From contig JAKQKX010000020.1 in NCBI GenBank assembly GCA_029560465.1, forward strand, positions 51,434-115,433: a stretch of 64,000 nt of DNA. The letters are read 5' to 3'. The DNA comes from Candidatus Omnitrophota bacterium. Its GTDB lineage: Bacteria > Omnitrophota > Gorgyraeia > Zapsychrales > JANLHA01. The notes beneath the pieces are model-generated. The model saw only the letters and a program-made list of their open reading frames with translations, was not told the DNA's origin and searched no databases. The stretch's first letter is position 1. The number at the start of each line of letters is the position of its first letter. Made by a program: the position numbers and the translations under genes. Positions 17,695 to 64,000 of this stretch are shown here, in pieces.

Positions 17695-17719
17695 GAGAAC
17701 TCCTTCATAAAATAACGCG

Positions 17720-18682
17720 TTATCCGATAGAAGATTTCCGTTTGAGTGCCCGGTACTCCGCGATCGTCCGCTCCACACCTTCGGCAAGCGAAATGCGCGG
17801 CGTAAAGCCCAACGCGGTCATCCGGTTTATATCCATGCATTTCCGGGCCATGCCGTCCGGCTTGCTTGTGTCCCACGCCAGCCGGCCCCGGAAACCCGCT
17901 TTCTGCGCGATCAATTCCGCCAGGGAACGGATCGTCACCTCTTTCCCGCTTCCCACATTAATAAATTCCGGAGAGTCATAGTGCTCCATCATATACACAA
18001 TCGCGGCCGCCGCATCATCCACGTGCAGGAATTCCCGGAGGGCGCTCCCGGTCCCCCAGAGGGGAACCGCGTCCCGGCCCTCATCCACCGCGTCAACCGT
18101 CTTTTTCACCAAAGCGGAAAGGACATGCGATTTATCCAAATCAAAGCAATCATTCGTCCCGTAGAGATTGCACGGCATCAGGCTGATCCCGGGAAACCCG
18201 TATTGCCGGTTATAATATTCCACCATCTTCAAACCCGCGATCTTGGCCAAAGCATACCCTTCGTTTGTCGGCTCCAAAGCGCCGGTCAACAGATAGTCCT
18301 CCTTCATGGGCTGCGGGCACTCCCTCGGGAAAATGCAGGAACTGCCCAAGAAACAAAATTTCCGGGCACCGTGGACATAAGCCTGATGAATAATATTATT
18401 TTGAATCACCAGGTTTTCATAAAGGAACTCCGCCTTATGTTCATTGTTGGCTTTAATCCCTCCCACCCGCGCTGCGGCGTCGATCACGATATCAGGTTTC
18501 TCCCGGGAGAAAAACTCTTTAACCGCTTCCGTATCCATCAAATCCAATTCCACCCGGGACCTTAAAACAAAATTGGAGAACCCCCTGCCTTTGAGCTGCC
18601 GCACAACGGCAGAACCGACCATGCCGTTATGCCCGGCCACAAAAATTTTATACTCCGGACGTATTTCAAATACCTTCTTCAC
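17720..18682 (-). CDS. fcl: GDP-L-fucose synthase (GDP-4-keto-6-deoxy-D-mannose 3,5-epimerase/4-reductase)
   Basis: IFVAGHNGMVGSA, YALAKIAGL and CNLYG are typical of Fcl. Confidence 0.8.
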   Translation of the reverse strand: MKKVFEIRPEYKIFVAGHNGMVGSAVVRQLKGRGFSNFVLRSRVELDLMDTEAVKEFFSREKPDIVIDAAARVGGIKANNEHKAEFLYENLVIQNNIIHQAYVHGARKFCFLGSSCIFPRECPQPMKEDYLLTGALEPTNEGYALAKIAGLKMVEYYNRQYGFPGISLMPCNLYGTNDCFDLDKSHVLSALVKKTVDAVDEGRDAVPLWGTGSALREFLHVDDAAAAIVYMMEHYDSPEFINVGSGKEVTIRSLAELIAQKAGFRGRLAWDTSKPDGMARKCMDINRMTALGFTPRISLAEGVERTIAEYRALKRKSSIG

Positions 18683-19384: not shown

Positions 19385-20794
19385 CTAACGGAATTTTATT
19401 TTCTTCATGGCAAAGAAACACATTTTAAAAAGCAATAAGCCGTGGCGGAAACGCTGAATCTGGGTTGTGCCATACGTTCTTTCCTTGTAACGGATCGGTA
19501 ACTCCAGGACTTTCAGGTTCAGCTTGACCGCTCCGAAGATAAGATCAAAATCGCCGAAAGGATCAAACGGGCCGAAATAGCCCCGATTAACGGCCAGTTC
19601 CTCATAATCACGCTTAAACAGCACTTTGGTCCCGCACAGGGTGTCTTTGAAACGCTGGCCCAAAAGCCAGCTGAAGAAAACCCCAAAAAACTTATTGGCA
19701 AGAAGATTAAGGAACCGCATGGCCTGCTTCTCCATGGGATAAACCAGCCGGCATCCGTTAATAAATTCCCCCCGGTTATGGCGGATCGCATCATAAAATT
19801 TAGGCAGGTCTTCCGGAGGAACGGTTAAATCCGCATCCAGGATCATCAGCACCTCTCCGGAAGCCCGGCTGAAACCCAGCCGCACGGCATCGCCCTTCCC
19901 CTTTCCCGTCTGCTTCAAAAGCTTTATGTCCTTCTCTGGATATCGCTGAATAACCCGCTCCACCTCTTCATAAGTGCCGTCTTGGGATCCGCCTTCGACA
20001 AAAATAAATTCCTGATGAAGCCCGAAGGCAGGGGTACGCAAAATCGCCTGTTCAATGTTCCCCTTCTCATTCCGGCAAGGAACCAAGACCGTGACGGAGA
20101 ACTCCCTTTCAAATTCAAAAACCGGCCGGGCGATCACGATATGGTTTAACGTGAGCGCGTTAAAAACCGGCAACGGTGCTATAAAACGGTTGATGACGTA
20201 ACTCAAGCCCCAGACCTGCAGCGGGAACAAAATAGCCCTCTCGGTTTTAACCGGCTCGTACCCCGTCAGGGTTAGAAAATTGCACAGGTCGTGGTATGTC
20301 AGCCAATTCTGAATTTTCTGCTTTATCTTTAACCCGGCTTTTTCCCCAAATTGAAGGATGGTCTGCCAGAGGTAACTGTAATATTCGACAATAATCCGCG
20401 TGTGCGCATGACAGAACGGCCTAAGGTCAGCCAGAAACAGCTGAATATCATCCAATTCCCCCAGCAAACCCGACAACACGATAAAATCAAATTTATCCGG
20501 ACACGAAAAATCTTTTAAAGCACAACATTCGAATCTTAATTGCGGGTATTTCCGCGCCGCGATTTCAACCGAACGGCCGCTGACATCAATCCCAACGCCG
20601 ACGGACGGTTTCAGTTCGTTCAAAAGGCCGCCGGTCGAGCAGCCGACTTCCAGGACCTTCTTCCCCTCCGGGATCAGGTAACGGTATTGTTTATAAAGCA
20701 ATTTATAATAATAACGGTTTTTCTCCAGGAAGCGGTCGCGCCGGTCAGCCAAATGGTCATAATGTTCAGCAATCGAATTAAGGGCGGTCGTCAT
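19385..20794 (-). CDS. Bifunctional class I SAM methyltransferase / family 2 glycosyltransferase (DPM1-like) fusion
   Basis: N-terminus has [15 protein letters not shown] (MTase motif I). C-terminus has [15 protein letters not shown]...LMILDADLT, the DxD of a GT2. Confidence 0.7.
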
Positions 20795-21869
20795 GCGTGG
20801 GGTCTCCTTGTTTCCATCGGTCCTGGTTCAATTCCCATATTTGAGAAAGGGTTTCGCGGATATTAAACATCTGTTCCCATTGCGGGTAATGCGCGGAGAA
20901 TTTCTTCAACCCGCTGATATACCAGACGTGGTCTCCCGCCCGGGGTGCCTCTTTATAGTCCCAGCGAAGCGCGCGGCCAGAAATCTCTTCACACAGCCGG
21001 ATCCCTTCCAGGATAGAGCAACTGTTGGCCCGGCCTCCCCCCATATTATAAACTTCCCCCGGCCTCGGATCGCGATAAAAATGATAAAACGCCTGGATCA
21101 GGTCAAAACTGTGGATATTATCTCGCACCTGTTTGCCTTTATAACCCAAAACAGTGTACGGGGTGCCGGTCATGCAGCATTTCATCAGGTAGGATAAAAA
21201 TCCGTGCAGGACCGTACCGGAATGCCGGGGCCCGGTGAGGCACCCCCCCCGGAAACACCCGGTCTTAAGCCCGAAATAACGGCCGTATTCCTGAACCAGG
21301 ATATCGGCCGCCAGTTTAGACGCGCCGAACAACGAATGTTGACTCTGGTCGACGCTCATGGTTTCATCGATCCCGTCATAAAAAGGGTGCTGTTCGTCGA
21401 GGTCCCAGCGGGTTTCCCGCTCTTCTAAAGGAAGGCGGTTAGGCGCGTCCCCGTAAACTTTGTTGGTGCTGGTAAAAATAAAAACCGCTTCCGGGCAATA
21501 CCGCCGGGTCATTTCCAGCAAGTTTAATGTCCCGTTGGCGTTGATGGCAAAATCCGTCAAAGGCTCCCGGGCCGCCCAGTCGTGCGAAGGCTGGGCCGCC
21601 GTATGAATCACAAGTTTAATGCCCTTCCCGTATTCCGCGAAAACCCTTTCTAAAGCATCCCTGTCCCGGACATCGGCAGACCGGTGGTCGTAACCCGGGA
21701 TTATTTCTTTCAAGCGAGCGGCGTTCCATCGCGTCGATGCCTCTGCCCCGAAGAAAGTCTGCCTCATATCATTATCGATGCCGATTGGCTTAAATCCCCG
21801 GGAAGCAAAAAATTCCACCGCTTCCGAGCCGATCAACCCCGCCGATCCCGTGACCAAGACAACATCCAT
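20778..21869 (-). CDS. NAD-dependent epimerase/dehydratase (CDP-paratose 2-epimerase-like)
   Basis: [16 protein letters not shown] Rossmann motif and YGASKLAAD catalytic Y-x3-K. Confidence 0.75.
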
Positions 21870-49910: not shown

Positions 49911-51809
49911 TTAACGCAGGAGGCGAGGATAAAGCAAAGAATGAATATGGGAATCCGGGATATCACGAGCTAACCCGTGGACATGCCCCAGGGCCCTTCG
50001 AAACCGCTGTTCATTAAGAACACGCAATGGAACAGGGATGGCGTTAGGCAGGAAGGTTGTGTCCTGGACAAGGTCCGCCTTAGACATAAACAGGAATCCC
50101 TGCTTGATACTCCCCGAGAAAGACTCTACGGCGCGCTGCACTTGTCTTAATTTATCCGAATCCGGCACACAGCTGGTCACAGAGGGCTCACATGCAGGAT
50201 CGGAAAAGTACTCCCGGCCCCACAAAACCGCGCCCACCGCTTCAATCGCCTTCGGGTTATCCGGCTCTAAATCAATAGTATAAGGAACAATTGTTTTAAA
50301 CCCCGCCGCAAACAGCGTGTTGCGGAAGACCAACCAAGACGTTTTCGATAAAGACCCGGCCTTTCCCGGGAGGAAAGATGCCGAGGAGTCAACCACCGCG
50401 AACGCCTGGGGAGCCATATGCTCAGCGATGAGCCGGAAAAATTCCAGAGTGTAATACTGCCCCGCGCTAAAATCAACAGCATCGGGATAATGGATATAAA
50501 CAGCGTCAAAAACCTCTTTATTGTTTTTCAAAAAACGAAACGCCTCTTGAGAAACGATGCGAATCCGAGGATCCTTTAAGGCGCCGGCCATGATGCTGTA
50601 ACTCATCATCGGATCCTCCTCCAACAGAGACAACATCGAATCATCAACCCCAGCCAAAGTAATCTGCTCTATCCCAGAATATTTCACAAGTTCCTTCAAA
50701 ATAAAAGGGCCCGCGCGCCCTAACACTAAAACCCGCCTGGGAACATCCCCCCGGAGGGAAACCGGGACATGAACGCAATACTCCTGAAAAAACTCATCCC
50801 ACTGGGAATTCATAATTAATTGATGGTTCAGAAAGAAAAAATACCCCCAAGGATAGGCCGGGTCTTCCAAATACTTTTTGCTGTAAGACGTTAACAGCCA
50901 AATATCCAAAGGGTGAGGAGAAAACGGGACGACATCAACATACCCGTTAGCCACAAGATGACGGCTCACGTCCGGCCAGGATTCTTTGACCCGTAATATA
51001 TCGGATAACTCTCGGACGGGCTCCACAAAATATGTCTTTTTCAAAAAATACTGTTCTAAAAGAGAAACCCGAATCATCGCGATGATGATAAAAGCAAGCA
51101 AGGCGCTCGCGATTATAATGTGCCTCTTCTGGTTTACGGCCTGGTTTCCCAAGAGCAAGATCAAAAGCCACATGATAGTCAAGACGGACAATCCTAATCC
51201 AAATCCCAGCAGCAGCAAATCCCTGTGCGCAAAGGGTAACAACGTGGCCAACAAACCCGCGGCAAAATACCCCAGGAACTGAAATCTCGCGTGACGCTCC
51301 CAGGGCTTTTGGGAGTCTTCTGCTCTCCAGTTCCAGCACGCGATCCGCGCCAGGAGTCCTCCGGACAAGCGGCCGAGTGCGAAGACAAGCCCGAATAACC
51401 CCAAAGAAAAAACAATCCGGCCCGCCAAGATGCCAAAACGGTCTAGAAAATATAAATTTATAAAATACAAAATATAAAGCACCGGAATGGCGGCCGCGAC
51501 AACCGCACTAAAAAAAAGCCCGGGCATAATAACAGCTTCCCGGGCCTGAGATATTTTCCGAAGTCCTCTCATGAACCCAACAGCATGAATGCCAAGATAC
51601 ACCCCGACCAGCAAACTAAACCAGAACATCTCCTGATGAAAAAACAAACTGAGGATTTGCGCCATCAACAATACAGCACAAAAGCTGCAGGCAGAAAGGA
51701 TAAAAATAATTATAGATGTCATAAAAAACGGCCTCCCCACAAAATATCCCGGGACAAAACAAGTCTCGGTCTTCGTATTCCCCTCTCTCAAAATATTCAT
51801 AAACGCCAT
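49911..51809 (-). CDS. Polytopic membrane protein fused to a spermidine-synthase-like (polyamine aminopropyltransferase fold) C-terminal domain with a degenerate glycine motif
   Basis: Eight to ten N-terminal TM helices, then VLVLGRAGPFILKEL...ITLAGVDDS resembling the VLVIGGGDGG...EID pattern of SpeE. Start set at MAFMNIL because the upstream part of the track ORF is an out-of-frame read of the Thr-Pro repeat. Confidence 0.5.
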   Translation of the reverse strand: MAFMNILREGNTKTETCFVPGYFVGRPFFMTSIIIFILSACSFCAVLLMAQILSLFFHQEMFWFSLLVGVYLGIHAVGFMRGLRKISQAREAVIMPGLFFSAVVAAAIPVLYILYFINLYFLDRFGILAGRIVFSLGLFGLVFALGRLSGGLLARIACWNWRAEDSQKPWERHARFQFLGYFAAGLLATLLPFAHRDLLLLGFGLGLSVLTIMWLLILLLGNQAVNQKRHIIIASALLAFIIIAMIRVSLLEQYFLKKTYFVEPVRELSDILRVKESWPDVSRHLVANGYVDVVPFSPHPLDIWLLTSYSKKYLEDPAYPWGYFFFLNHQLIMNSQWDEFFQEYCVHVPVSLRGDVPRRVLVLGRAGPFILKELVKYSGIEQITLAGVDDSMLSLLEEDPMMSYSIMAGALKDPRIRIVSQEAFRFLKNNKEVFDAVYIHYPDAVDFSAGQYYTLEFFRLIAEHMAPQAFAVVDSSASFLPGKAGSLSKTSWLVFRNTLFAAGFKTIVPYTIDLEPDNPKAIEAVGAVLWGREYFSDPACEPSVTSCVPDSDKLRQVQRAVESFSGSIKQGFLFMSKADLVQDTTFLPNAIPVPLRVLNEQRFRRALGHVHGLARDIPDSHIHSLLYPRLLR

Positions 51810-51945
51810 GGAGCACAAAAATTCAAAAAAGGATTCCGCGCTTGGGTAACATTTTAATATATTCCATGCGTTTTGCAAGAAAAGATGATCCGGAATCCCA
51901 AAACGGGAATGACGGCAGGACACGCCCCCAAAAGGACAGGCGCTC

Positions 51946-53295
51946 CTAAGGCGTCGGGGTCGGGGTGTTCGTCGGAGTTGGCGTGTTCGTTGGCGCAGGC
52001 GTCGGCGTATTCGTTGGGGTCGGGGTATTTGTCGGCGTTGGCGTGACCGTTGGGGTCGGGGTATTTGTCGGCGTCGGCGTGACCGTTGGAGTCGGCGTTG
52101 GGGTCGGGGTAACCGTTGACGTTGGGGTCGGCGTTGGGGTTGGCGTTGGGGTCGGCGTCGGCGTCGGTGTTGGGGTCGGCGTACAGCTCGGGACCACACA
52201 CGCAATCGTCGAAGGCGGCTGAGTCGCTGAATTACAATAGCTGTTCCCGACGGTCCCCCCGGTCATATCCTCACACCAAACCAGACGGTCACAGGTTCCC
52301 GGAGCGCCGCCGGTCGGGCTGCAGGCGCCATTACAAGGCCCACAGGCGCCGACATCCCATGTGCACCACCCGCAATCGGCATAACAGGCGTCACAATCTT
52401 CAGTCGCGGGGTAATTACAGGTTCCGTCCCCGCACAGTGACCCGCAATCCCAGGAGCAATTCGAACTATTTTCGCCGGCACAACTATCACAGACAAAATT
52501 AGGACATACCGCCGTACAATCCGCTGGACAAGCGACAGTCCCTCCCCCACCGCAAAAAGATTCCTGGCTGGTCGTACAGACCATATCCCCGCAACACGGC
52601 TGGCACGCCACGCAGGACAAACAGGCCCCTGGAGCGGTACAATCAAAAGAAGGATGCCCGCAAACAACCGGGCAGTCAGCCGCGCAACTTAACGGATCCT
52701 CATTACAGGTCCCATCCCCGCAACACGGTGAACACGCCGGGCAAATGCCGCATTGCCCGGCACAGTTAAACCCTGGCTCCCCGCAAGCCGGGGTTCCGCA
52801 ATCCCCGGGGCAGGAGAGATGCGTTTCCCCTCCGCTACACGATCCATCCCCACAGCACGGCTGGCAGGCCGCGCAACCCGCACAGTTCGCAGGAAGGTCA
52901 CAATTAAACGTCGGGTCTCCGCATTCTGGGGGGCAGTCGGTCGGGCAGTTTGTCTTATCTTCCACATAAGGAATGTCGGGCCTATTATCACAAGTGCCGT
53001 TCCCGCAACACGGGTCGCATGCCGAGCACGACACACAACCCTCAACATCAAAACTGAGTCTGACCTGCATACAATAGACAGGATCAGGGCAGGTCATGGT
53101 TACAAAGCAGTTTTCATCAGTACATATCTTTGCGGTTTCAGCGTTGATTTGATTCAAGGACTGTTTAAAACTCCCCATAACCGCGCCGCGGAAAGGGCCA
53201 AACGGGCCGATAAAAGATAGGATGGCAACAACAACTACCGCAACAAGCAGTAGATATTCGATAATTTGTTGTGCTGTTTTGTTGACAACTTTCAT
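51946..53295 (-). CDS. Flp/Fap-type pilin-like N-terminus fused to a large cysteine-rich tandem-repeat extracellular domain and a C-terminal Thr-Pro repeat tail
   Basis: N-terminal [25 protein letters not shown] matches the Flp G/A-x4-E-Y hydrophobic motif. About five copies of CxxCxPCCGDGxC...E...CPxDC follow. The C-terminus is (TP)n/(TPTN)n. Confidence 0.55.
51950..52195. repeat. Tandem hexanucleotide-based repeat (GGBGTY)n encoding the Thr-Pro tail; low-complexity DNA that creates a spurious Arg/Pro/Gln-rich ORF in another frame
   Basis: Visible directly as gtcggggtcggggt... repeated for ~250 bp. Confidence 0.7.
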
Positions 53296-53443: not shown

Positions 53444-53662
53444 TTACGGATTAAGAATTGTCAGAGTGCCAGCGGCGTCTCCCCAAACCATGCCGGCGAC
53501 ATCCACCATCCCCTGCACCGGAGCGTTAAGAGAACGTTCATACTCAGTCCGGAACTCACCACCAGGGCCCATAAACACAAAAATTACTACGATGACAATC
53601 GTAAACAGCAACAAAAACTCAATCGTATGCTGGCCAGAATTATTATGAACTGTTTTTAACAT
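53444..53662 (-). CDS. flp: Flp/Fap family type IVb pilin
   Basis: MLKTVHNNSGQHTIEFLLLFTIVIVVIFVF has the G-x4-E-F/Y processing and hydrophobic motif. Size is ~72 aa. Confidence 0.55.
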   Translation of the reverse strand: MLKTVHNNSGQHTIEFLLLFTIVIVVIFVFMGPGGEFRTEYERSLNAPVQGMVDVAGMVWGDAAGTLTILNP

Positions 53663-53797
53663 TTTATCCCCCTTATACACCTATATCATATTTTAAATGA
53701 AGATAAAGGAGACAAAATAAAATTTTGGTGCTTAAAACTATTAAATTCATATGTTTAGCTAAATTGGTCTCAACCCGGGATAGAAAGCCTCCAGCGA

Positions 53798-54220
53798 TTA
53801 AGCATGCTCCCTGGCCTTTAATATACGCTCCGTCATCTCTTCTTCATACGCTCTTTCAATTTTTACAAGCTCTCCGGCCCCAAGAAACGACCGGATGGCT
53901 TTCTTGACCGCGTCCAACCGTCTATGAAGATACCAATAATCTGCCTTAAGCTCTCCCTTCCGCCCCTCTTCATATTTATTCACATACGCACTTTTTCCTT
54001 TATGTTTCATATACTGCTGAAAGGCAATAATTTTAATATGATATTTCTTATCTTTCAATTCCGGGGCCTTTTTAAGCTCTTTCAATAAAAAATCATCCAC
54101 GTCCAGTTGCGTGAATTTACGGTCTATCCGTTCCAAGTCTTCTTTGGTTGTCTTATAGCACCATAATAAATACCGCCTGTACAAATTTTTTTCTTCCGGA
54201 GTCATCTTTTTTTTCCGCAT
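53798..54220 (-). CDS. Hypothetical lysine-rich protein
   Basis: 140-aa ORF. No motif recognised. Confidence 0.3.
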   Translation of the reverse strand: MRKKKMTPEEKNLYRRYLLWCYKTTKEDLERIDRKFTQLDVDDFLLKELKKAPELKDKKYHIKIIAFQQYMKHKGKSAYVNKYEEGRKGELKADYWYLHRRLDAVKKAIRSFLGAGELVKIERAYEEEMTERILKAREHA

Positions 54221-54256: not shown

Positions 54257-56338
54257 TTAAAATGCGGGAGTCATGATACGGCTCATCGTTCTATGAACGA
54301 CAAAAGTCCCCCCGTTCTGAAAAACAACATCCCCCAAGGCGCGTAACTGGTCCGACCGCAGGTCCGGATACGCTTCCCGTTCCTTGTCTCCCACAAAAAT
54401 ATAATCCACCATATACTTCTCAAACATTCTGGCAGACGCTAAAGAAAACGGCTGTTCATACATGCTTTTCACGTCCTCAATCCGTGGGGCCGGGATATCA
54501 TACGACCCACGCCAGAGCCACTCGTGAACCGGCCATCCGACAACGGTGGGAAGCCCCGTAAACGCGGAAACCCGGCTAAAATCGGAATAACTCGTTCCCA
54601 CGGCCTCCAATATAACCGGCTGGCCTGAAACATGAGCATTCAGCCATAATATGCCCGCATAATCTTCCGGATATTTTTCCTTAAGCCAGTTCAGTCCGTT
54701 GAGTCCCTTAAAGTTCTTAAATCCGTACCGGTCCCGATATCCAAAATAAGGAAATATCAAAAGCAAGCACACCGTCAGGGAAATCACCAGCGTCAAGGCG
54801 GACTGGATTCCCTTCCGGGACTTGTTATCCGGGATAAAGTCTTTGAGCCAGATAAACCCCGCCACCCAACCCGTCGCAATTCCCATAAAAATAAAACTCT
54901 GCAGAGTAAATTTAAACATTGTATTCGCCCGGGGATGCTCGGGATAAATGTCCTTCACATAAATGATTTCCGGGATGAGAATTAACACCCACGCAGCGAT
55001 GATGAGCGCGAGGATAAAACCTAACACGCCCTGTTTTTTCCTCCGCAAGGCACTGGCGACAGCGAAAAGCGAACGATTCTGATGATCCGCGACCCAAAAC
55101 GCGATCAAGCTGAGGATTCCTATCCCGCCCCACACAACCAACAGGCGCCAAAAATCCGAGCTGTCTTCTACCCACCTGACCCCACTTGAAATCGACCGAA
55201 AATGTGTCCACCATAAGGATGAAACCCCGGCTGCCACGGCCCCAATGAGCGTCAAGGATGTGCACACGTGCCCAAAACGGGATGGATAAAACAGGGTGAG
55301 GGTCATCCCGCACAAACACAACAAAAGCGCATACACCCCGCCCGACCAGGCGCTCGTCATAAAACAAACCCCTAACATCATGCCCGTGGCCAAAGCCCGG
55401 GGATAAATCTTCCAAGCCCTTTCGGAAACAAGGACCCCATGATACCAAAGAAAAACACACAACAACAAACTGACCGCCAAAGGGAAATCCCAGACATGGG
55501 CGTGCAGATCACCGACGATCAACGAATAAGACGGGAATTCATGGATAGTCTGCGGGATAAACCGGGTGGCGTCCGGATACCAGTAGCCTTTCCACCCGTG
55601 ATTCTTGATCCCATACCAAATCGCGTGGGTGTTCCCGGCAAACGCGACCAAAACAGCAGCCACCGCGCTACCCCATATAAGCGGTTTTCCGATGTCCTCC
55701 GTTTCCGTACTCTTATAAATCAGGTTCAAAACCACGCTGAACGTTTCCGCCATAAACAATCCCATAATAAACCCCAGCAGTAAGTTATAACTATACGGCA
55801 ACTCCAGGGACCAGTACCGGGTCATCACGGATCCGAGAAAGTGGCCGAACGTATAATAATTCATGGTTTCACCGGCAAACCACATATCCAAGACAGGGAG
55901 CGTCGGGGCCCGCAAATATGAAGCCATCAGGCCGGCGTCCATAAATTTCTCTAAATCATTGATGTCCGGGCCGAACCCCCGGGCCACACAAAGGAAAAAG
56001 AAGCCAGCCGCAAACAAAATCTCTTCCGCCATCAGCCACTTCCAGCGCTCTTGCAAAAACAGGACAATCTCATCTTTGTTCAAATGAAAGACCGCAATGC
56101 TCAACACGGCAAAAAGCAAGAAAACAACGAACAATCCCCCCTGGTTATTGACCGGAAAACCGAAATGGGCCAAGACCCACACCGGCAAAGCCAGGACAAG
56201 CCATGTCAGCAGACGGCCAAAAGCCCACCCGGCGTCAAACAACGTATTGCGGAGCCGGGTAATTAAAATCGGCATCGCAAAAAGCTGCAGGAGCGCTGTC
56301 ATAAACCACGCAAAAACAATCAACCCCAGATCCTTCAT
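54257..56338 (-). CDS. DUF2298-type (YYY-domain) large membrane protein, putative GT-C-like glycosyltransferase
   Basis: Polytopic membrane protein whose C-terminal region GLPTVVGWPVHEWLWRG is typical of the DUF2298/TIGR03662 family. Start taken at MKDLGLIV. Confidence 0.5.
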   Translation of the reverse strand: MKDLGLIVFAWFMTALLQLFAMPILITRLRNTLFDAGWAFGRLLTWLVLALPVWVLAHFGFPVNNQGGLFVVFLLFAVLSIAVFHLNKDEIVLFLQERWKWLMAEEILFAAGFFFLCVARGFGPDINDLEKFMDAGLMASYLRAPTLPVLDMWFAGETMNYYTFGHFLGSVMTRYWSLELPYSYNLLLGFIMGLFMAETFSVVLNLIYKSTETEDIGKPLIWGSAVAAVLVAFAGNTHAIWYGIKNHGWKGYWYPDATRFIPQTIHEFPSYSLIVGDLHAHVWDFPLAVSLLLCVFLWYHGVLVSERAWKIYPRALATGMMLGVCFMTSAWSGGVYALLLCLCGMTLTLFYPSRFGHVCTSLTLIGAVAAGVSSLWWTHFRSISSGVRWVEDSSDFWRLLVVWGGIGILSLIAFWVADHQNRSLFAVASALRRKKQGVLGFILALIIAAWVLILIPEIIYVKDIYPEHPRANTMFKFTLQSFIFMGIATGWVAGFIWLKDFIPDNKSRKGIQSALTLVISLTVCLLLIFPYFGYRDRYGFKNFKGLNGLNWLKEKYPEDYAGILWLNAHVSGQPVILEAVGTSYSDFSRVSAFTGLPTVVGWPVHEWLWRGSYDIPAPRIEDVKSMYEQPFSLASARMFEKYMVDYIFVGDKEREAYPDLRSDQLRALGDVVFQNGGTFVVHRTMSRIMTPAF

Positions 56339-56553
56339 GCTTCTGTTCCCTGCCCCTCCCTGATTCCCCGAAGAGGTCTGCGGCCGGATAAACACCCGTC
56401 CCCCTCTTCCTTCTAATTGAGGACACAACACCCCTTTAAATTATCGCATTTGATTTCTTATTCACTCTTCTCTTGTGTTATAATAAAACACGAATTCGCC
56501 GAACGGAACAAAAATATCCATTTTTCTTCCCATTCATTACCAACAAAGGCCTT

Positions 56554-57594
56554 ATGAACATCCTTATCACCGGGGCTTCGGGATTTCTGGGAACGCATTG
56601 TTTCCAGTCTCTTCGCCAAAACGGCCACAACCTGACCCTCGTTGACATTGCGCCTCCGGACGGAGAACGGCAAACCCCGGGCTGCCGGTTTGAACGCGTC
56701 GACATACGCCAGAAACACGCGGTTTCCCCCCTTATCCAAGGGGCCCATATCGTCATCCACGCGGCCGCAGCCTTACCGTTATGGAAACGGGGAGATATTT
56801 TCTCGACAAACGTGGAGGGCACGCGGAATATTTTATCGGCGGCCCTGAGTCACGGGATTCAAAGGGTCATTTATATCTCTTCAACGGCTGTCTATGGCAT
56901 CCCTGAAAAACATCCCATCCTGGAAAGCGACCGCCTCATGGGCGTGGGGCCCTACGGCGAGTCTAAAATCCTGGCTGAAAAACTATGCCTTGACTTTATG
57001 GAGAAAGGGCTGGATATCACCATCCTCCGGCCCAAAACGTTTCTGGGAGCCGGCCGCCTGGGTGTTTTCGAAATCCTGTTTGACTGGGTTCACGACGGAA
57101 AAAAAATCCCCGTCATCGGCGACGGGCAAAACCTTTACCAGCTGCTCGCTGTCGATGACCTTGTGGAGGTGATCACGCTCTGCATTCAAAACGCCTCCAA
57201 GGAATATAACGACGTGTTCAACGTCGCGGCGGAAACATTCGGGACAGTCCAAGAAGACTTGAACGCACTTTTTGAATTTGCGCAATCCGGCTCGCGCGTT
57301 CAGCCAACACCCGCGACTTTGGTGAAAGGCGCCCTGCGGATTTTCGAGATGCTTCACCTCTCTCCGCTTTATCAATGGGTCTATGACACAGCGGATAAAG
57401 ACTCCTTCGTTTCCATTGACAAACTCAAGAACACTTTTCACTGGTCCCCCCGTTTTTCCAACGCTCAAATCCTGATTAAAACCTATGAATGGTATCTCAA
57501 AAATTACGCCCTCATCAAAAGCAGACAGGCGGGGATCACCCACACCGCGGCCTGGAAACAAGGCCTGCTGGCGCTGGTCAAAAAATTTATGTAA
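56554..57594 (+). CDS. NAD-dependent epimerase/dehydratase family protein
   Basis: MNILITGASGFLGTHC Rossmann motif and YGESKILAE (Y-x3-K). Confidence 0.8.
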   Translation: MNILITGASGFLGTHCFQSLRQNGHNLTLVDIAPPDGERQTPGCRFERVDIRQKHAVSPLIQGAHIVIHAAAALPLWKRGDIFSTNVEGTRNILSAALSHGIQRVIYISSTAVYGIPEKHPILESDRLMGVGPYGESKILAEKLCLDFMEKGLDITILRPKTFLGAGRLGVFEILFDWVHDGKKIPVIGDGQNLYQLLAVDDLVEVITLCIQNASKEYNDVFNVAAETFGTVQEDLNALFEFAQSGSRVQPTPATLVKGALRIFEMLHLSPLYQWVYDTADKDSFVSIDKLKNTFHWSPRFSNAQILIKTYEWYLKNYALIKSRQAGITHTAAWKQGLLALVKKFM

Positions 57595-57635
57595 ATTCGA
57601 AACGGCACCGGGAACCCGCCTTAAAATTTTGAATT

Positions 57636-59357
57636 TCAAAAATTCCGCGCGGGCCGGGGGTCCTCAATGAACGGGTATCCTTCCTGCGCGGATGAAAAAT
57701 CCTGCTTCTTAAAAACATAAACCCGGGGATGATCATAAACGGAAAACGATTCATCCGCCCGGTCATCCGGGACGGGAAAACGCCTTCCGCCCAACGTTAT
57801 CCCGGGATAAGAGGTGAATTCAGCCACTTTAGAAAACCCCAGTTCTCCGGCAAAAAGCTTACGGTAATATTCACCGGCACGCGGATAGCAGACACGGTGC
57901 GTCCCGCAATCCATAACCCGCGGCAAGGGGACAAAAAGTTTTTGGGACGCGATGATGATATACTCCGCCTCGAAAAGCTTTTGCGCAACGCTCCGCCATT
58001 TCCGCACGTCATCGGGCTGGTCGTAAAACGGCAATTCGACAAAGCGGTATTTCTCAACACCGAACAACGGCAGCCGTTCATCCCAATGTTCCACCGCCAA
58101 AGTCGTGCCGGGCGGAATATGACGGTTAATCCAGCGCGAAGCCTCAACGCGGGTCAGTGGCCGCCGGTATATATCCATAAATAAAGCAACCCACAGGGCC
58201 AAAGCCCCGTAAACCACAACCAGATAAATCCGCCGCATGTTCTTTCTTCGAATGGGCCCTAAAGCCCAATCCAGGGCCACCGCCGCCATAACAGCACAAA
58301 AAGGATACAACGGCAACATGTAGCGCATAAACTTAACCGCGGTCCGACCCACGACGGCAAAATAATACAGGTTGAGCAAAACATACACTAAGCTCAAAAA
58401 GCTGGCCGCCCCCCCCCTCCGGTGACGGTTCAGCCAATGCCAAACAAAAACGGCCAACCCGCAAAGAAAAAGAAACGACAACATCGGTCCCATGCCCCAG
58501 AAAAACATGTTTTCCAAATAATAGAAATACGCCTTTGTTCCCACATATTGCAGGGTGTACGGGAAAATGTACGGATCGCGACTCATCTGAAGCTGGGCCA
58601 TCGTGTCTGACCAGAAACGAGAGAAATGCGCATACGCGTATGGCATCAAAACAGCATGGACGCTGACAAGCGCCAGCAGAAAAACAACCCCATATTTCAA
58701 CGGGCGGCCGGCGGGCTTCATGAAATCCCAGCGCGGCCCGTTGGCCTGCCAAAACAGAAGAGGCAGGATAACCGGCAGAAAAATAACCGGGGTTATTTTT
58801 GTGGCCAGCAAAACGGCAAAGACACAACCCATGCCCGCTGCCCGGGCCGCCGACGCCCTCTGCAAATAATTTATAAAAAGAATGGCGAAAAACGTAATGA
58901 AAAAATTCACAAAATTATCGACGATGTAAAAATTGCTGTTTTGGATGGGGAAAAAGCTCAGGGCATAAAAGGCCGCGGCGGACAGGGCCAGGCGGGGACG
59001 ATGAAACAACTGCCCCGCCAGGCGATAGACCAGGTAAACGACAAGCGTGTCCAACAGCGAGGACAAAACCCGGCCCACAAACAACATCCCGTCATAATTC
59101 GCCCACTCCGTGTGAAACAACGCGTCACTCAACTGCGCGACCGCCCGCAGAAAATAAACCGGGAAAGACCCGTAATTAAAAAAATCCGGGTCCATCTGGC
59201 GGAACAGATGAATACGGCAGGCGACCAGCATCAACATGCGTTCATCCGGATGCTGCTGATAACCGTAATCCCAATTCACACCGTAAAAACGCAAGCCAGC
59301 GGCGGCCAAAAGGATCACAACAAGGATCAGGGTTGTTTTAAATGATGTCGTGTTCAT
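57636..59357 (-). CDS. Family 39-like (PMT/ArnT-type, GT-C fold) polyprenol-phosphate-sugar dependent membrane glycosyltransferase
   Basis: Polytopic membrane protein with HPDER in the first periplasmic loop (the DE motif of the GT39/ArnT family). Length is 573 aa. Confidence 0.65.
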   Translation of the reverse strand: MNTTSFKTTLILVVILLAAAGLRFYGVNWDYGYQQHPDERMLMLVACRIHLFRQMDPDFFNYGSFPVYFLRAVAQLSDALFHTEWANYDGMLFVGRVLSSLLDTLVVYLVYRLAGQLFHRPRLALSAAAFYALSFFPIQNSNFYIVDNFVNFFITFFAILFINYLQRASAARAAGMGCVFAVLLATKITPVIFLPVILPLLFWQANGPRWDFMKPAGRPLKYGVVFLLALVSVHAVLMPYAYAHFSRFWSDTMAQLQMSRDPYIFPYTLQYVGTKAYFYYLENMFFWGMGPMLSFLFLCGLAVFVWHWLNRHRRGGAASFLSLVYVLLNLYYFAVVGRTAVKFMRYMLPLYPFCAVMAAVALDWALGPIRRKNMRRIYLVVVYGALALWVALFMDIYRRPLTRVEASRWINRHIPPGTTLAVEHWDERLPLFGVEKYRFVELPFYDQPDDVRKWRSVAQKLFEAEYIIIASQKLFVPLPRVMDCGTHRVCYPRAGEYYRKLFAGELGFSKVAEFTSYPGITLGGRRFPVPDDRADESFSVYDHPRVYVFKKQDFSSAQEGYPFIEDPRPARNF

Positions 59358-59413
59358 TAAAACCCCATATTAAAAGTCATTTCAAAACCTCTGAGCGTGA
59401 CGAGTCCTACCAC

Positions 59414-59477
59414 GGGGGAAGGCCGTTCATAGGCCCCTCCCGCCCGGGGTGAACTCTCCCTTTCGCGGCCTTCCCCC
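59414..59477. repeat. Perfect 12-bp inverted repeat GGGGGAAGGCCG ... CGGCCTTCCCCC with a ~40-nt GC-rich spacer in the intergenic region
   Basis: Read directly. No flanking T-tract. Confidence 0.5.
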
Positions 59478-59500
59478 ATGGCCCCCGTTTGAAAAAGGCT

Positions 59501-61180
59501 TTAAAATGGCTTGTAAGGATTCCCAAGAAAAGCGCATTCCCTCCCGACCGAATAAACCCGGTACCCTTCCTGATGGCTGAACACCGGTTCCCAATTCTTC
59601 AAAAGCGAGCTCTCGCGGACATCCGTCTCGGGCCAGGCGTCGTGCCCAGGCTCAACAATAATGAAATCAATCTTCTCTTGCTTCAACAAGCGGCAAGCTG
59701 CCGCAGAATCAGCCGCCGGGTGGAATACCGGCTCAATGGTCCGCAACCGCTCATAAGCCGGGAGCCCGGCCGACCATGGGAAATACACGTAACCGATATA
59801 AATTCTCCGCCCTAAAAGAGACGGCGGGCAATACATCCCTGTTGTGCATAAATACACCGCATCCGGGGGGGTCTGGTCTTTGAGCCAGACAGCCACCGGA
59901 GACCGGCGAAAATCCCTTAACTCGCCTTGATGATCGTTCAGGACCGGGAACAGGTCCACGATCCCCGAGAAGGTCAACACAAAAAGGAAAAGCAGCCCGG
60001 CCATCTTAAACCAACGGGACCCCGCCAGACACGAAGCCAAGAACCCCGCGACCGCGACTTGAACGGAGATCATGAAAAAATTGATCAGCTTATGATTATT
60101 AAACATGTCCGGAGAAAACCGCCAGATGTTGCTTGCGGCAAAAAAAACCACCGCGACTCCGACCCATATTTTCACCGGTTTCTTCCCCCAAAAGAAAACC
60201 GCCGGGATCATCACCGAATATAGCCCCAGGTTATAAAACCAATATCTCCCCCATTCCAAAAAATTTTTCGGCTGCTGGACAAAACCCGGGCAGTACACAA
60301 TTTCTAACGGCTGCCCGGCGCGGATATACCACAACGCCGGGACAGTGCACAGGAACATCAAAAAATAATAAAAGCCCAGGGGACGGACAAAGCCCGGCGA
60401 AACAATGAACCAAATGACGACATACGTCAAAACTATCGGGATAATCGCATGGTGCAACAAAGGGGCCAAAGCCGCCATCAGGACAATGGCTGTCATGGAC
60501 CGACGGGAAAGAAGCGTCCCTTGACAGGCGTATTTTAAGAGCGGCCATAAGCAGGCTAAAATGAAAGCATAGCTGAGCGCCAAATGCCTTTGATTAGTGT
60601 AAATATTGAGCGTCCAGAAAATACTGACGAGCCCGTTCCAGGGACCAAAGCTGGTAAAATGCGTGGCGGTGACAATATCTTTCCAGGAGGCCCCATGAAA
60701 GGGGTGTTTTTGAAAAAAGAACAGAAACGATAAAGATCCGTTGAACCAAAACAGCACCACGGCGATGAACCCCGCTAGCCGATTGGCAAACATCATGCTC
60801 CCCAGGCGGTAGAGAAGCCACAAGAGGAGCGTCAACCCGGCGGCGCTCAACAAGTTCAAAGCAACCGCGATATTAACACCCGCCTTTTCCAGCAGCCCCA
60901 CCCAGGAATAAAAAAGGAAGTGGTACCGGATGGGCTGGCCGGCAAAAAGAGGATGCTCAAGCGCGTGATTTCCACCCATCGAAAAAGACCGGATCAGCGG
61001 GATGTGGGCCCCGAAATCGCTCCACAATTTATCCCGGATAAAAAAAGTGTTATCCCGGTATTCAAAGGTGTGCTGCATAAGCGACCAGCTAAGGGTCAAA
61101 AAAAGCAGGAACAGGGCTGCGTCTAAATATTTACCCCGGAAAAAAGGGCTCAAAGAAAATGTGGGCCATCGGCATTTCAT
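59501..61180 (-). CDS. Polytopic membrane protein, possible additional GT-C-type glycosyltransferase
   Basis: 559 aa with more than 10 TM segments, co-directional with the GT39 and GT2 genes. No catalytic motif recognised. Confidence 0.4.
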   Translation of the reverse strand: MKCRWPTFSLSPFFRGKYLDAALFLLFLTLSWSLMQHTFEYRDNTFFIRDKLWSDFGAHIPLIRSFSMGGNHALEHPLFAGQPIRYHFLFYSWVGLLEKAGVNIAVALNLLSAAGLTLLLWLLYRLGSMMFANRLAGFIAVVLFWFNGSLSFLFFFQKHPFHGASWKDIVTATHFTSFGPWNGLVSIFWTLNIYTNQRHLALSYAFILACLWPLLKYACQGTLLSRRSMTAIVLMAALAPLLHHAIIPIVLTYVVIWFIVSPGFVRPLGFYYFLMFLCTVPALWYIRAGQPLEIVYCPGFVQQPKNFLEWGRYWFYNLGLYSVMIPAVFFWGKKPVKIWVGVAVVFFAASNIWRFSPDMFNNHKLINFFMISVQVAVAGFLASCLAGSRWFKMAGLLFLFVLTFSGIVDLFPVLNDHQGELRDFRRSPVAVWLKDQTPPDAVYLCTTGMYCPPSLLGRRIYIGYVYFPWSAGLPAYERLRTIEPVFHPAADSAAACRLLKQEKIDFIIVEPGHDAWPETDVRESSLLKNWEPVFSHQEGYRVYSVGRECAFLGNPYKPF

Positions 61181-61235
61181 ATCAATATGACGGTCATTTT
61201 AAACCCGCCTCCTTCAAAACTTCAATGTGTCCCGC

Positions 61236-62534
61236 TCAATCGAAATAGCGCTGCATAAAAGCCGAAACGGAACTTAAAATCCCGTCCATATTCAGATAAT
61301 CCCAGTGCCCGTTGCGGCCCACAAGGTACAGGCCCTGGCGCTCCAACCGGCGGGTGATGATGTCCTTGACCGGGCCGGCGTCAACCGTGGGGATGGGATA
61401 AGTGTAAGGGACCCTCTTTATATCCGTCAACACGACGTCGCCCCGGTCCCGAAGGATCCCCAGCCGGATTAAATCCTCAACCACCCGTTCGCGCAAAGTC
61501 TCCGGGGGAAGGCCATCCCTCCCGTTTTTATCGGTGATTTCCGCGACTAGCGCCGGAGGAAAACAGGGGCTGAAATTGTGCATCATGGTGATCCGGAAAA
61601 AACTTTCCGACTCCTTGAAGAACGCCCAGTGACAGTCATTTAACAGAGAAAAAGCTGCCCCCTTTTTTAAACCGACCAGAATAAAATAAGTGTCATTCCA
61701 CTTCAGGGGCGGATAACTTCGTTCCAACCCGCTGACGCTGATCATTTTCAAAAGCTCGACCAAGGGGATCGTGGAAATCACGGTGTCAGCCTGTTCCGTT
61801 GCCCCGTCCCGGGTCGTGATCCGCCACCCCCGGGAATCCCGGACAATCTCCCTCACGTCTTTATTGAGAGCGATCCGCGATTCCATTCCCCGGGCCGTGT
61901 AATCCATCAGCGCCTGAATCCCGTTCTTGGGATAAATAAACCTCCACTGATACATCCGCCCGATCACCTCTTTTCCAAACGCGGCCATCAAAAAATTCTT
62001 CAATGACGCCGGATGGATCTTCGCATTCACCAGATCCATGGAGATCTGCCGAAGGTCACAGTTCCAGATCTTGCGGTTATACGGCGTCATAAAATGTTTG
62101 GCGATACCGAACCCCAGGCCATGATCAATCCAGTCCTGCAGATGCCGGAATTCCGGCTGATTCCGGGTTCTCGCCATCAGGTACCCGCAAACACATTCGA
62201 GCCAGTCCCTGAAAGGCAGGCCCTTGATCCCTTCTTCAAAGGGATAATTGATCAAATAGCGGCGAGACTTCCGGTCGGTGTGATAAATTGAAACCCGCCG
62301 TTGCGCCAGCACATAATCCAGAGGGAGGGAACGCAGGTAATCGGTCATACGCGGGTCACGGCTGTAAAGCGCATGGACCCCGAAATCCCATCGGTAATCG
62401 CCGCTCACGTTGGTTTTGGCCAGGCCGCCGATCTGCCCCTCTTTCTCAAGGATTTTAAACTCGCGGCCTCTCAAATTGAGCTGCCTTCCGCATTCCAAGC
62501 CGGATAACCCGGCGCCCAGGATGACTGTCTTCAT
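61236..62534 (-). CDS. FAD-dependent oxidoreductase (amine oxidase / UDP-galactopyranose mutase-like Rossmann FAD fold)
   Basis: N-terminal VILGAGLSGLECGRQL...ILEKEGQIGG is a GxGxxG dinucleotide-binding motif. Confidence 0.65.
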   Translation of the reverse strand: MKTVILGAGLSGLECGRQLNLRGREFKILEKEGQIGGLAKTNVSGDYRWDFGVHALYSRDPRMTDYLRSLPLDYVLAQRRVSIYHTDRKSRRYLINYPFEEGIKGLPFRDWLECVCGYLMARTRNQPEFRHLQDWIDHGLGFGIAKHFMTPYNRKIWNCDLRQISMDLVNAKIHPASLKNFLMAAFGKEVIGRMYQWRFIYPKNGIQALMDYTARGMESRIALNKDVREIVRDSRGWRITTRDGATEQADTVISTIPLVELLKMISVSGLERSYPPLKWNDTYFILVGLKKGAAFSLLNDCHWAFFKESESFFRITMMHNFSPCFPPALVAEITDKNGRDGLPPETLRERVVEDLIRLGILRDRGDVVLTDIKRVPYTYPIPTVDAGPVKDIITRRLERQGLYLVGRNGHWDYLNMDGILSSVSAFMQRYFD

Positions 62535-63253
62535 CTTGAAGTCCTGTTATGATATTCCTGTTTAAGTTTAAAGAGCCCGCAGAGAAGTCCTCCGACAATC
62601 CCCGGCAGACGCCCCGGGCGGAAAATGGCCGTGCCGCCGGCCGGACGGGGATAATGCCGGACAGGGATTTCCACGATTTTATAACCGGACAGGTACGCCC
62701 TTAAGATAAATTCCGACATTACGCAATACCTCATATGCTTCAATTGGGGGAGGACCTGCTCAATAACGCCCCGGCGGATAAGTTTAAACCCGGAATCAAT
62801 GTCTTTCATCCAGAGCCCGAACAGCAGGCCGATCAAACGGTTATACACGAACGACAGGACCCGCCGGTGAACAGGGTCTCTGCGGGGGCTCTTGCACCCG
62901 CTTATAATATCATACCCGGAACGTCCGTTCATCAACTTATGGATATCCTCCGGGGCGTGCTGGCCGTCAGAATCGCTGAACAGCACCCACGGAGTGCGCG
63001 CCAAGGATAAGGCGTCCTTAAAAGCCTGTGTATACCCCTTGCGCCGTGGGGAACTGACAAGCGTAAACGGGATCTCCTGCTGCAACCGGGCCAAAAGCTC
63101 TTTTGTCCCGTCGTCACTCCCATCTTCGGCGATCATCAAAGTCACCGGGGCCCCGCATCGCGCTGTAGCGGCATGAAAATCCCGGATAACTTTCTCGATC
63201 GTACGGGCTTCATTATAAACAGGCATGATTAAAGTCAACGGCTCATCAATCAT
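62531..63253 (-). CDS. Family 2 glycosyltransferase, polyprenol-phosphate sugar synthase-like (DPM1/ArnC/GtrB type)
   Basis: LTLIMPVYNEARTIEKV...MIAEDGSDDGT. At 240 aa it has the size of ArnC/GtrB-type enzymes. Confidence 0.8.
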   Translation of the reverse strand: MIDEPLTLIMPVYNEARTIEKVIRDFHAATARCGAPVTLMIAEDGSDDGTKELLARLQQEIPFTLVSSPRRKGYTQAFKDALSLARTPWVLFSDSDGQHAPEDIHKLMNGRSGYDIISGCKSPRRDPVHRRVLSFVYNRLIGLLFGLWMKDIDSGFKLIRRGVIEQVLPQLKHMRYCVMSEFILRAYLSGYKIVEIPVRHYPRPAGGTAIFRPGRLPGIVGGLLCGLFKLKQEYHNRTSR

Positions 63254-64000
63254 AATATGTCTTCCGGCGCTTCGGCCGGTGGTACAATTTCTTTATCCAA
63301 ACGCGGGGGAGAACTCGGCTCAAAATTTAAATACGCCGCGGCGAATCGCGCCAGCATGTCACCGATAAACGCGTTCCCTTCCGGTTTATAATGACAGTGG
63401 TCATACAACATGTCTTCCTGGTCCCGCGCATACTTGTCCCTTAGCCACGGAAGCAGGTCCAGATAAGGAAGCCGCCGTTTGCGCATTTCCGCGACAAAGC
63501 GCTGCTGAGGTTCATTCCTTAATATCTTCGACATGATTTGAGGCCTGACCGGGAAATACACGAAAATCAATTTAAAACCGGCATCCCGGCTCACCATCCT
63601 CATCATATCAACAAACGGCAATATCTTCTCCCAAGACCCGTCATCCCAAGCATATCCCCAATCTTGGAACGCATGGTGGATGTGCCAATTAAATGATTCT
63701 TCCGTATCCCACTCCCCGGTTTCCTTCATGCGATGCGTGCTGGCAAAGCGTTCTCTGGCCGCCTTCCACTCCTCTGGCGACTGGTTCTCCCACTGATGCT
63801 CCTTATACAAAGCCCGCAACCTATCCACCTTGGCCAGTACCCATCTGGCCAGATGGCTAAACGACAACCAGCCCGGCAACCGGACGATCTTGAGCAAGGG
63901 AGACGCATACGCGTCATTGAGGTAGAGACCCACCAGCACAATATCAGGCTTAACAGAGAGCCCGGTTTCCATCAGCACGGCAAACTCATTCTGCAAGTCA
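63250..64000 (-). CDS. SGNH/GDSL-hydrolase-like protein, N-terminally truncated by the window edge
   Basis: VLVGLYLNDAY resembles block III (GxND); DHCHYKPEGNAFIGD resembles block V (DxxH). The track start at 63996 is a TTG, and the frame is open to the window end. Confidence 0.45.
   Translation of the reverse strand, partial: DLQNEFAVLMETGLSVKPDIVLVGLYLNDAYASPLLKIVRLPGWLSFSHLARWVLAKVDRLRALYKEHQWENQSPEEWKAARERFASTHRMKETGEWDTEESFNWHIHHAFQDWGYAWDDGSWEKILPFVDMMRMVSRDAGFKLIFVYFPVRPQIMSKILRNEPQQRFVAEMRKRRLPYLDLLPWLRDKYARDQEDMLYDHCHYKPEGNAFIGDMLARFAAAYLNFEPSSPPRLDKEIVPPAEAPEDIL

Follow-up and report, generated by a model that had tools for sequence, protein, structure and literature searches.

A predicted polyprenyl-phosphate-sugar glycosylation cluster next to genes for Thr-Pro-tailed Flp-like proteins in Candidatus Omnitrophota

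A 64,000-nt stretch of a Candidatus Omnitrophota contig (JAKQKX010000020.1; "the window" from here on) carries most of a cluster of approximately ten genes that we predict to be a glycosylation system. Our reading is that the encoded enzymes use monosaccharides linked to polyprenyl phosphate to glycosylate an acceptor located at the outer face of the inner membrane, and that the likeliest acceptor is the Thr-Pro tail of the Flp-like proteins encoded downstream; we give this reading even chances of being right. The chemistry is probably furanose-based rather than mannose-based. The original prediction for this DNA had proposed lipid-carrier-dependent glycosylation outside the cytoplasm, and this part is borne out by a UbiA-type phosphoribosyltransferase, GT2 enzymes of the polyprenyl-phosphate synthase type and membrane proteins with the glycosyltransferase C (GT-C) fold. 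It had also drawn an analogy to actinobacterial O-mannosylation, which fits poorly. The system is conserved, and its logic is shared with known precedents, while its enzyme families are uncharacterised.

All but one of the cluster genes are on the reverse strand (coordinates are window positions unless a locus number beginning with L is given). In the direction of transcription, the cluster starts beyond the window end, in a metagenome contig (L001) that is identical to the window and extends past it. The first gene there encodes the UbiA-type polyprenyl-phosphate phosphoribosyltransferase (L001:3115-4011), and the next encodes a GT2 that we call the second GT2 (L001:4044-4820). These are followed by an SGNH/GDSL hydrolase (63250-64000, cut by the window end to its C-terminal 248 aa; complete in L001:4870-6108), a 240-aa GT2 (62531-63253), a mutase-like flavoprotein (61236-62534) and three polytopic proteins: one of 559 aa (59501-61180), one of 573 aa that we refer to as GT39-like (57636-59357) and a DUF2298 protein of 693 aa (54257-56338). 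Between the last two, on the forward strand, lies the gene for an extended short-chain dehydrogenase/reductase (SDR) of 346 aa, a GalE-like NAD epimerase/dehydratase (56554-57594). Every gene named in the original prediction is where it was said to be, including the epimerase on the opposite strand, but the block described there was incomplete by the two genes past the window end. Intergenic gaps within the cluster range from -4 to 144 bp, suggesting a single operon, and a promoter/terminator scan of 51.5-57.7 kb gave no informative signal.

The UbiA protein scores 239.3 bits with NF008977, the NCBIfam equivalog model for decaprenyl-phosphate phosphoribosyltransferase, above the cut-off of 234, and it contains an NDxxDxxxD motif. 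Its orthologue in L098, a more distant locus, scores 248.9 bits. The flavoprotein, with Amino_oxidase and NAD_binding_8 matches, was previously labelled an FAD oxidoreductase; it is an FAD protein, but that label is too generic. It aligns with the UDP-galactopyranose mutase (UGM) of A. fumigatus (3ute, E = 7e-27) and that of T. cruzi (4dsg, E = 6e-23, residues 2-413), and it keeps the UGM His loop and the equivalents of N163, W167, W315, R327, Y419, R447 and Y453. Other UGM sites are substituted (R182 to K; Y317 and Y334 to F), and the bacterial UGM model TIGR00031 aligns with the N-terminal 70 residues only. Full-length homology and active-site residues thus make it a homologue of eukaryotic-type UGM, and pyranose-to-furanose mutase activity is predicted. 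With a UGM-homologous flavoprotein in the cluster and a phosphoribosyltransferase heading the operon, the donors indicated are furanoses rather than mannose.

The 240-aa GT2 matches PF00535 at 76 bits. Its best NCBIfam neighbours are ArnC (top), AglJ, dolichyl-P-hexose transferase, PgfS and PpgS, and although all of these fall under their cut-offs, all are of one type, so its earlier description as a polyprenol-phosphate sugar synthase stands as a prediction. The second GT2 has PgfS and ArnC as its top two neighbours, with 98 bits against the PgfS model (cut-off 500). The stop of the 240-aa GT2 gene and the start of the flavoprotein gene overlap by 4 nt, an arrangement from which we predict that the flavoprotein is translationally coupled to this GT2. 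The SDR carries TGxxGxxG and YxxxK motifs, and its best solved relatives are UDP-sugar 4-epimerases, making it a candidate epimerase of a UDP-sugar or of polyprenyl-phosphate ribofuranose. Its gene always adjoins the GT39-like or DUF2298 gene in Omnitrophota and in L010, L019, L029 and L092, and in L098 it adjoins UbiA. In family searches, the flavoprotein was not of the DprE1 type (FAD_binding_4/ALO), and the SDR belonged to the extended Epimerase family, not to the classical DprE2 type. The complete SGNH protein (412 aa) has an N-terminal membrane anchor, a VLGDSITFGD block and weak Lipase_GDSL_2 matches, and its gene is kept in all Omnitrophota clusters.

Of the three polytopic proteins, the 573-aa one had been described as a GT39 enzyme of the PMT/ArnT type with an HPDE loop. 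The loop and the GT-C fold are both there: H35-P36-D37-E38-R39 is invariant in 39 homologues, with the acidic DE in the first extracytoplasmic loop, and an AF2 model (pLDDT 88) adopts the GT-C fold, with residues ~400 to 572 forming a soluble alpha/beta domain. Membership of GT39 or ArnT could not be demonstrated by the profile assignments that had been proposed as a check. PF02366 (PMT) scores 24.3 bits against a cut-off of 22.7 and covers only positions 85-235 of 245, PF13231 has no match in this protein (though it is present in many of its homologues) and Pfam gives no match to PMT_4TMC (PF16192). In Foldseek, AglB/STT3 ranks first (E = 5e-8), Pmt4 18th (E = 1.5e-5) and Pmt1/2 27th and 31st. 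The lack of PMT_4TMC and this fold ranking therefore make the 573-aa protein a GT-C that is not demonstrably GT39. Nor does it group with ArnT, which is missing from its top 50 Foldseek matches, and its homologues of ~45% identity occur throughout bacteria of the Candidate Phyla Radiation (CPR).

These results bear on the mannosylation analogy, which follows the actinobacterial pathway: a Ppm1-like GT2 would make polyprenyl-phosphate mannose and a GT39 Pmt-type enzyme would transfer it to the Thr-Pro tail. In its favour are a GT2 resembling Dol-P/Pol-P-hexose synthases, a PF02366 score just over the cut-off, the DE motif in loop 1 and a Thr/Pro-rich candidate acceptor close by. However, the PMT match is partial, the C-terminus is a soluble domain where PMT_4TMC would be, and the structurally closest enzymes are oligosaccharyltransferases. 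The analogy also assigns no role to the UbiA phosphoribosyltransferase, the UGM-like flavoprotein, the SDR or the other two GT-Cs, and a genuine PMT plus PMT_4TMC protein is encoded by a separate gene in a related CPR locus (L028). We therefore consider mannosylation of the tail improbable.

The DUF2298 protein scores 257 bits to PF10060 and 406 bits to TIGR03662 (Chlor_Arch_YYY; cut-off 300). Its model has the GT-C fold, with the arabinofuranosyltransferase AftA as its best Foldseek match, and its C-terminal globular domain resembles that of AglB/STT3, which in the model is compatible with a peptide acceptor. The 559-aa protein was left unclassified in the original prediction and indeed has no Pfam or NCBIfam match, but hhalign connects it to the DUF2298 family over ~510 columns (probability 96-98%, E = 3e-9 to 5e-13). 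It is therefore a distant DUF2298 paralogue and a predicted GT-C glycosyltransferase, with orthologues in Omnitrophota, L098 and CPR loci. The same method gave no significant relationship between the DUF2298 and GT39-like families. Searches of the PDB with sequences and profiles of the polytopic trio returned no matches, so fold comparison was needed, and in the GT39-like and DUF2298 models the polytopic N-terminal domain can be superimposed on solved GT-C enzymes. More than 1,500 DUF2298 homologues were scored, mostly from CPR bacteria (Patescibacteria), and we found no functional literature on DUF2298 (TIGR03662).

The wide distribution of these families also helps to judge whether the enzymes might modify lipid A or core lipopolysaccharide (LPS) with an amino- or pentose sugar, in the manner of ArnT and ArnC. 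ArnC is the top neighbour of the 240-aa GT2, albeit below threshold, and the organism appears to be diderm, judging from its MlaDEF and AsmA genes. But none of the three GT-Cs has an ArnT NCBIfam match, the cluster contains no ArnA, ArnB or ArnD genes, and CPR bacteria, which are not expected to have lipid A, are rich in all three GT-C families. Lipid A modification is thus a very improbable role for the cluster.

The candidate acceptor is a 449-aa protein (51946-53295, reverse strand). It begins with a Flp-like helix (KTA/QQIIEY), continues with ~300 aa of CGDGxC-type Cys-rich repeats (62 Cys) and ends in a tail of 78 residues, of which 38 are Thr and 30 are Pro. The distance from the DUF2298 stop to the start of its gene is 0.96 kb (1.3 kb had been given previously), and two small genes lie between, both on the reverse strand: p140, for a 140-aa soluble protein (53798-54220), and a gene for a small Flp-like pilin (53444-53680; 72-78 aa), which has a G/QHTIEF motif and in this genome no Thr-Pro tail. 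In the 449-aa protein, the small pilin and their orthologues alike, a hydrophobic helix follows the motif [G/A]-Q-x-x-I-E-[YFW]. A search of 5.8 billion sequences returned almost no homologues of the 449-aa protein; its tailed orthologues are in L006, L007, L012 and L018.

Public gene callers miss or mis-frame the tailed gene: JGI has no gene at L001:16063-17411, and ENA calls two wrong-frame open reading frames (ORFs) at L006:17532-18878. A 764-aa ORF at 49911-52205, whose first part reads the tail repeats in an alternative frame (RRPQ...), is an artefact.

Comparison with related loci ties the tail to the cluster. The order UbiA, (GT2), SGNH, GT2, flavoprotein, 559-aa, GT39-like, SDR, DUF2298, 140-aa, pilin(s) is repeated in five more Omnitrophota loci at 49-85% identity, with lineage-specific additions (either extra polytopic proteins or a radical SAM enzyme, a GT9 and further GT2s). 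In every cluster-bearing Omnitrophota locus that was read past p140, a Thr-Pro-tailed Flp-like protein is encoded directly downstream. L008 lacks the large Cys-rich protein, and there the small pilin itself bears a Pro/Thr/Ser tail, ending in PPVTPIPTMPPLPSMTPSPTASPTPTP. Synteny with L101 (GCA_964630825.1) holds on either side of the locus, with a ParA-like gene at one end and S15, PNPase, FtsK, RodZ and MiaB at the other. The Cys-rich Flp-like protein and the 140-aa protein are still encoded there, but the whole cluster from UbiA to DUF2298 is absent; the Flp-like protein ends without a tail, and none of the reading frames of the locus holds a Thr-Pro-rich ORF. This co-occurrence makes the tail, as originally proposed, a reasonable candidate acceptor, and we regard that role as plausible. 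The 140-aa protein, which has no Pfam, NCBIfam or PDB match, is present in all Omnitrophota loci, including L101 (L101:11728-12189), where it stays beside the Flp-like gene. It therefore belongs with the pilin-like genes rather than the glycosylation genes, and is possibly their regulator or chaperone.

The L098 locus shows which genes persist at greater distance: its order is 559-aa, GT39-like, SDR, UbiA, (GT-C with NPCBM), DUF2298, and it has no GT2, flavoprotein or pilin. Since L098 retains UbiA, the SDR and three GT-C families, these form the conserved core, which by gene content is kept across Omnitrophota-like lineages and partly in CPR bacteria. A shallow-alignment scan of genome contigs yielded 6 DUF2298 loci, and a search of metagenome contigs with a more diverse alignment yielded 80. 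The 80 are mostly from CPR bacteria, and in them DUF2298 is usually preceded by a flavoprotein. The pairing of GT39-like and SDR genes persists in Roizmanbacteria. Thr/Pro/Ser-rich proteins are concentrated near DUF2298, making up 15/109 (14%) and 9/210 (4%) of the genes in the near bins versus 0-1% in distal bins, and those in CPR loci include sortase-type surface proteins beside PilN/PilO-like genes.

Two further features of the CPR loci are worth recording. L053 (2471-13015), L089 and approximately 20 similar loci contain MurJ, PilN-like, PilO-like and surface-protein genes, a PRK07233 flavoprotein and DUF2298, with an LCP gene (LytR_cpsA_psr) on the opposite strand; the surface proteins have Thr/Pro stalks that end in an LPxTG-like signal and a transmembrane helix. 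In other loci (L015:4574-5167, L016:9404-9976, L019:3208-3792 and L021-L023), a ~195-aa protein with HAD-like motifs (GFDLDGV ... VEDNWD; DxDGV) is encoded between the flavoprotein/559-aa genes and the SDR or DUF2298 gene. It is a candidate phosphoribose phosphatase, and Pfam and NCBIfam give no support for these DxDGV-motif proteins.

The same enzymes could instead act on a glycan, i.e., add furanoses to, or assemble in the periplasm, an envelope polysaccharide, a lipoglycan or an LPS O-antigen. Emb and Aft enzymes perform an analogous furanose addition for arabinan, and AftA is the closest structure to DUF2298. A UbiA phosphoribosyltransferase, an SDR epimerase and a GT-C together constitute a published O-antigen side-chain architecture, for which versions with multiple GT-Cs and epimerases have been reported, and the apparently diderm envelope would suit such a product. 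On the other hand, the cluster is without an initiating phosphoglycosyltransferase, Wzx/Wzy, an ABC transporter or a ligase. A glycan acceptor also sits badly with the adjoining Thr-Pro-tailed Flp-like gene in the Omnitrophota loci read past p140, with the shift of the tail to the small pilin in L008 and with the joint absence of tail and cluster in L101. We regard a glycan acceptor as a possible but less likely alternative to the tail.

Several observations weigh against the tail, or against parts of the pathway we propose for it. L098 has the core genes with no adjoining pilin, and one of its GT-Cs is fused to an NPCBM carbohydrate-binding module, which points to a glycan acceptor in that locus. 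Three CPR loci have DUF2298 after a WecA-like GT4 and a UbiA phosphoribosyltransferase homologue, with LCP genes also found in such loci, and these resemble wall-polymer assembly. A Thr-Pro-rich neighbour occurs in only 7/31 (upstream) and 3/32 (downstream) dereplicated groups of DUF2298 loci. The contrast between tail and cluster comes from one cluster-less locus, L101, and the cluster could sit elsewhere in that genome. Pfam, including Flp_Fap, gives no match for the 449-aa Flp-like protein, and neither Tad or type IV pilus machinery nor a prepilin peptidase was seen in the parts of the window examined. A flippase and a phosphoribose phosphatase are both absent from the cluster, where neither a HAD module nor a MATE flippase was found. 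Finally, we considered the CPR flavoprotein (~50 loci) as an orthologue of the UGM-like protein and rejected it: it belongs to the PRK07233 family, is 15-18% identical and has lost the UGM residues. Because it is of another subfamily, the mutase assignment cannot be extended to the CPR loci.

If the cluster does glycosylate the Thr-Pro tail, the following scheme would account for its genes. In the cytoplasm, UbiA would transfer ribose-5-phosphate from phosphoribosyl pyrophosphate (PRPP) to polyprenyl phosphate, and a phosphatase would then strip the 5-phosphate. Also on the cytoplasmic side, the two GT2s would load sugars from nucleotide sugars onto polyprenyl phosphate, with the second GT2 contributing a further lipid-linked sugar. 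The mutase-like flavoprotein could either feed a furanose nucleotide sugar to its coupled GT2 or act on the product of that GT2. The SDR might epimerise lipid-linked ribofuranose (as ORF13 does in Citrobacter youngae O2) or supply the epimer of a UDP-sugar. Likely products would be a hexofuranose such as galactofuranose (Galf) and/or a ribofuranose epimer such as arabinofuranose (Araf) or xylofuranose (Xylf). The lipid-linked sugars would be flipped across the membrane, after which the GT39-like protein, DUF2298 and the 559-aa paralogue would add them one by one, both to Thr residues and to the glycan as it grows. Editing of the glycan, e.g., of its acyl groups, may fall to the membrane-anchored SGNH esterase. 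The match in the window genome between three donor synthases and three GT-Cs is suggestive, with the limit that this parity is not kept in all relatives.

A more specific version of this scheme is also conceivable. DUF2298 and the 559-aa paralogues might be protein-directed, oligosaccharyltransferase-like GT-Cs that use polyprenyl-phosphate furanoses, including a polyprenyl-phosphate hexofuranose made by the flavoprotein coupled to GT2, to build a furanose "bottle-brush" on the Flp-type Thr-Pro tail. Taken as a whole, we consider this speculative and rather unlikely. Literature searches found no report of a polyprenyl-phosphate-hexofuranose donor, and nothing relevant on Patescibacteria with galactofuranose or on lipid-linked galactofuranose with GT-Cs. 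If true, bacteria would have an equivalent of arabinosylated extensin-type glycoproteins, and a family that is widespread among CPR bacteria would receive its first function.

Even without that version, placing DUF2298 and its newly recognised paralogue family in a polyprenyl-phosphate-sugar pathway gives both a testable function, and a UGM-like enzyme coupled to a polyprenyl-phosphate sugar synthase raises the question of lipid-linked hexofuranose donors. If the tail is the acceptor, this uncultured phylum would have a dedicated pilin-tail glycosylation system with donors derived from PRPP and a mutase-type flavoenzyme, and the pentofuranose three-component concept would extend from O-antigens to proteins.

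The rest of the window is a bacterial chromosome segment whose genes include those for PNPase, S15, FtsK, RodZ, MiaB, MetH, MlaDEF and AsmA. The last gene co-directional with the cluster (49911-51809, reverse strand) encodes a membrane-anchored, spermidine-synthase-like protein of 632 aa, with a Spermine_synth match and 120 bits to PRK03612 (under the cut-off); its membership of the system is uncertain. The same gene follows the tail protein in L006, L007, L012 and L018, while L008 instead has an AdoMet decarboxylase gene at the equivalent position (L008:16988-17380). Just upstream of the cluster, and also where the cluster is missing, is a gene for a ParA/MinD-like ATPase fused to AMPK1_CBM, a glycogen-binding-type domain (L001:675-1835; L101:8306-9469).

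Two other regions of the window carry sugar-related genes. A reverse-strand cluster at 9433-17787 is for biosynthesis of nonulosonic-acid (pseudaminic/legionaminic-type) sugar and contains genes for NeuB, a PIG-L deacetylase, a formyltransferase-like protein, a CMP-sugar cytidylyltransferase, a DegT aminotransferase, a PseB-like dehydratase and a B12-binding radical SAM protein. Nonulosonic sugars are typically used in flagellin or pilin O-glycosylation or in surface glycans. At 19385-20794 (reverse strand), a 469-aa fused methyltransferase-GT2 is flanked by SDR epimerase/dehydratase genes (17720-18682 and 20778-21869), and the region looks like part of a second glycan locus.

Among known systems, the mycobacterial arabinogalactan pathway combines decaprenylphosphoryl-phosphoribose (DPPR) synthase, DprE1/E2, Glf and the Aft/Emb GT-Cs. 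Our cluster likewise has a polyprenyl-phosphate phosphoribosyltransferase, a flavoenzyme, an SDR, a galactopyranose-mutase-type enzyme and several GT-Cs, one of which is closest to AftA. Its flavoprotein and SDR, however, belong to other families, its mutase is eukaryotic-type and coupled to a GT2 polyprenyl-phosphate sugar synthase, and the Omnitrophota cluster has no WecA, GlfT or LCP genes. Actinobacterial Ppm1 and Pmt (GT39) carry out protein O-mannosylation and share with our cluster a lipid-carried donor, a GT-C with a DE loop and Thr/Pro-rich acceptors. They differ in that the GT-C here is without PMT_4TMC and has oligosaccharyltransferases as fold neighbours, and in that the accessory genes here indicate furanoses.

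The pentofuranose three-component systems of Citrobacter youngae O1/O2 use a UbiA-type phosphoribosyltransferase, a PRPP-derived lipid-linked donor and a GT-C acting outside the cytoplasm, and O2 has in ORF13 a GalE-like SDR that epimerises lipid-linked ribofuranose (Kelly et al. 2024, PMC11127046). Our cluster has the same trio of UbiA phosphoribosyltransferase, GalE-like SDR and GT-C, and that work notes elaborate versions with several GT-Cs and epimerases. In contrast to those systems, our cluster has neither a HAD phosphatase domain fused to UbiA nor a MATE flippase, and its GT-Cs are of the GT39-like and DUF2298 families and not demonstrably GT136. Two GT2s and a UGM-like flavoprotein are added, and the probable acceptor is a protein tail, not an O-antigen.

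In P. aeruginosa Pa5196, TfpW is reported to be a GT-C that O-glycosylates pilin with D-Araf in the periplasm (bioRxiv 10.1101/2020.04.19.049825; Harvey 2011). Both systems have a DPPR-synthase homologue, in our cluster predicted to serve a polyprenyl-phosphate-pentofuranose donor, and glycosylation genes beside a pilin gene. Unlike the TfpW system, our cluster has a flavoprotein that is not DprE1-type, an extended SDR in place of a DprE2-type one, no GtrA-like flippase and three GT-Cs instead of one, and its glycan would probably be placed on the long Thr-Pro tail of a Flp-like protein as opposed to a type IVa pilin loop.

Streptococcal Pgf and GtrB/PgtC2 O-glycosylate Ser/Thr-rich disordered extracytoplasmic regions of surface proteins (PMC5856776; 10.1101/2024.05.05.592596). 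The shared elements are a GT2 polyprenyl-phosphate sugar synthase, an NAD epimerase and GT-C membrane proteins, while the streptococcal systems use only hexose/N-acetylhexosamine donors (none derived from PRPP or a mutase), have other GT-C families and operate in monoderm hosts.

By analogy, then, the closest precedents are the pentofuranose three-component systems, TfpW with D-Araf, and Pgf with GtrB/PgtC2, and Ppm1/Pmt is the weakest fit among the systems compared. The UbiA phosphoribosyltransferase, the UGM-like flavoprotein, a GT39-like protein that is not demonstrably GT39 and the partial presence of the core in CPR bacteria are what make the Ppm1/Pmt analogy fit less well than the pentofuranose systems and TfpW.

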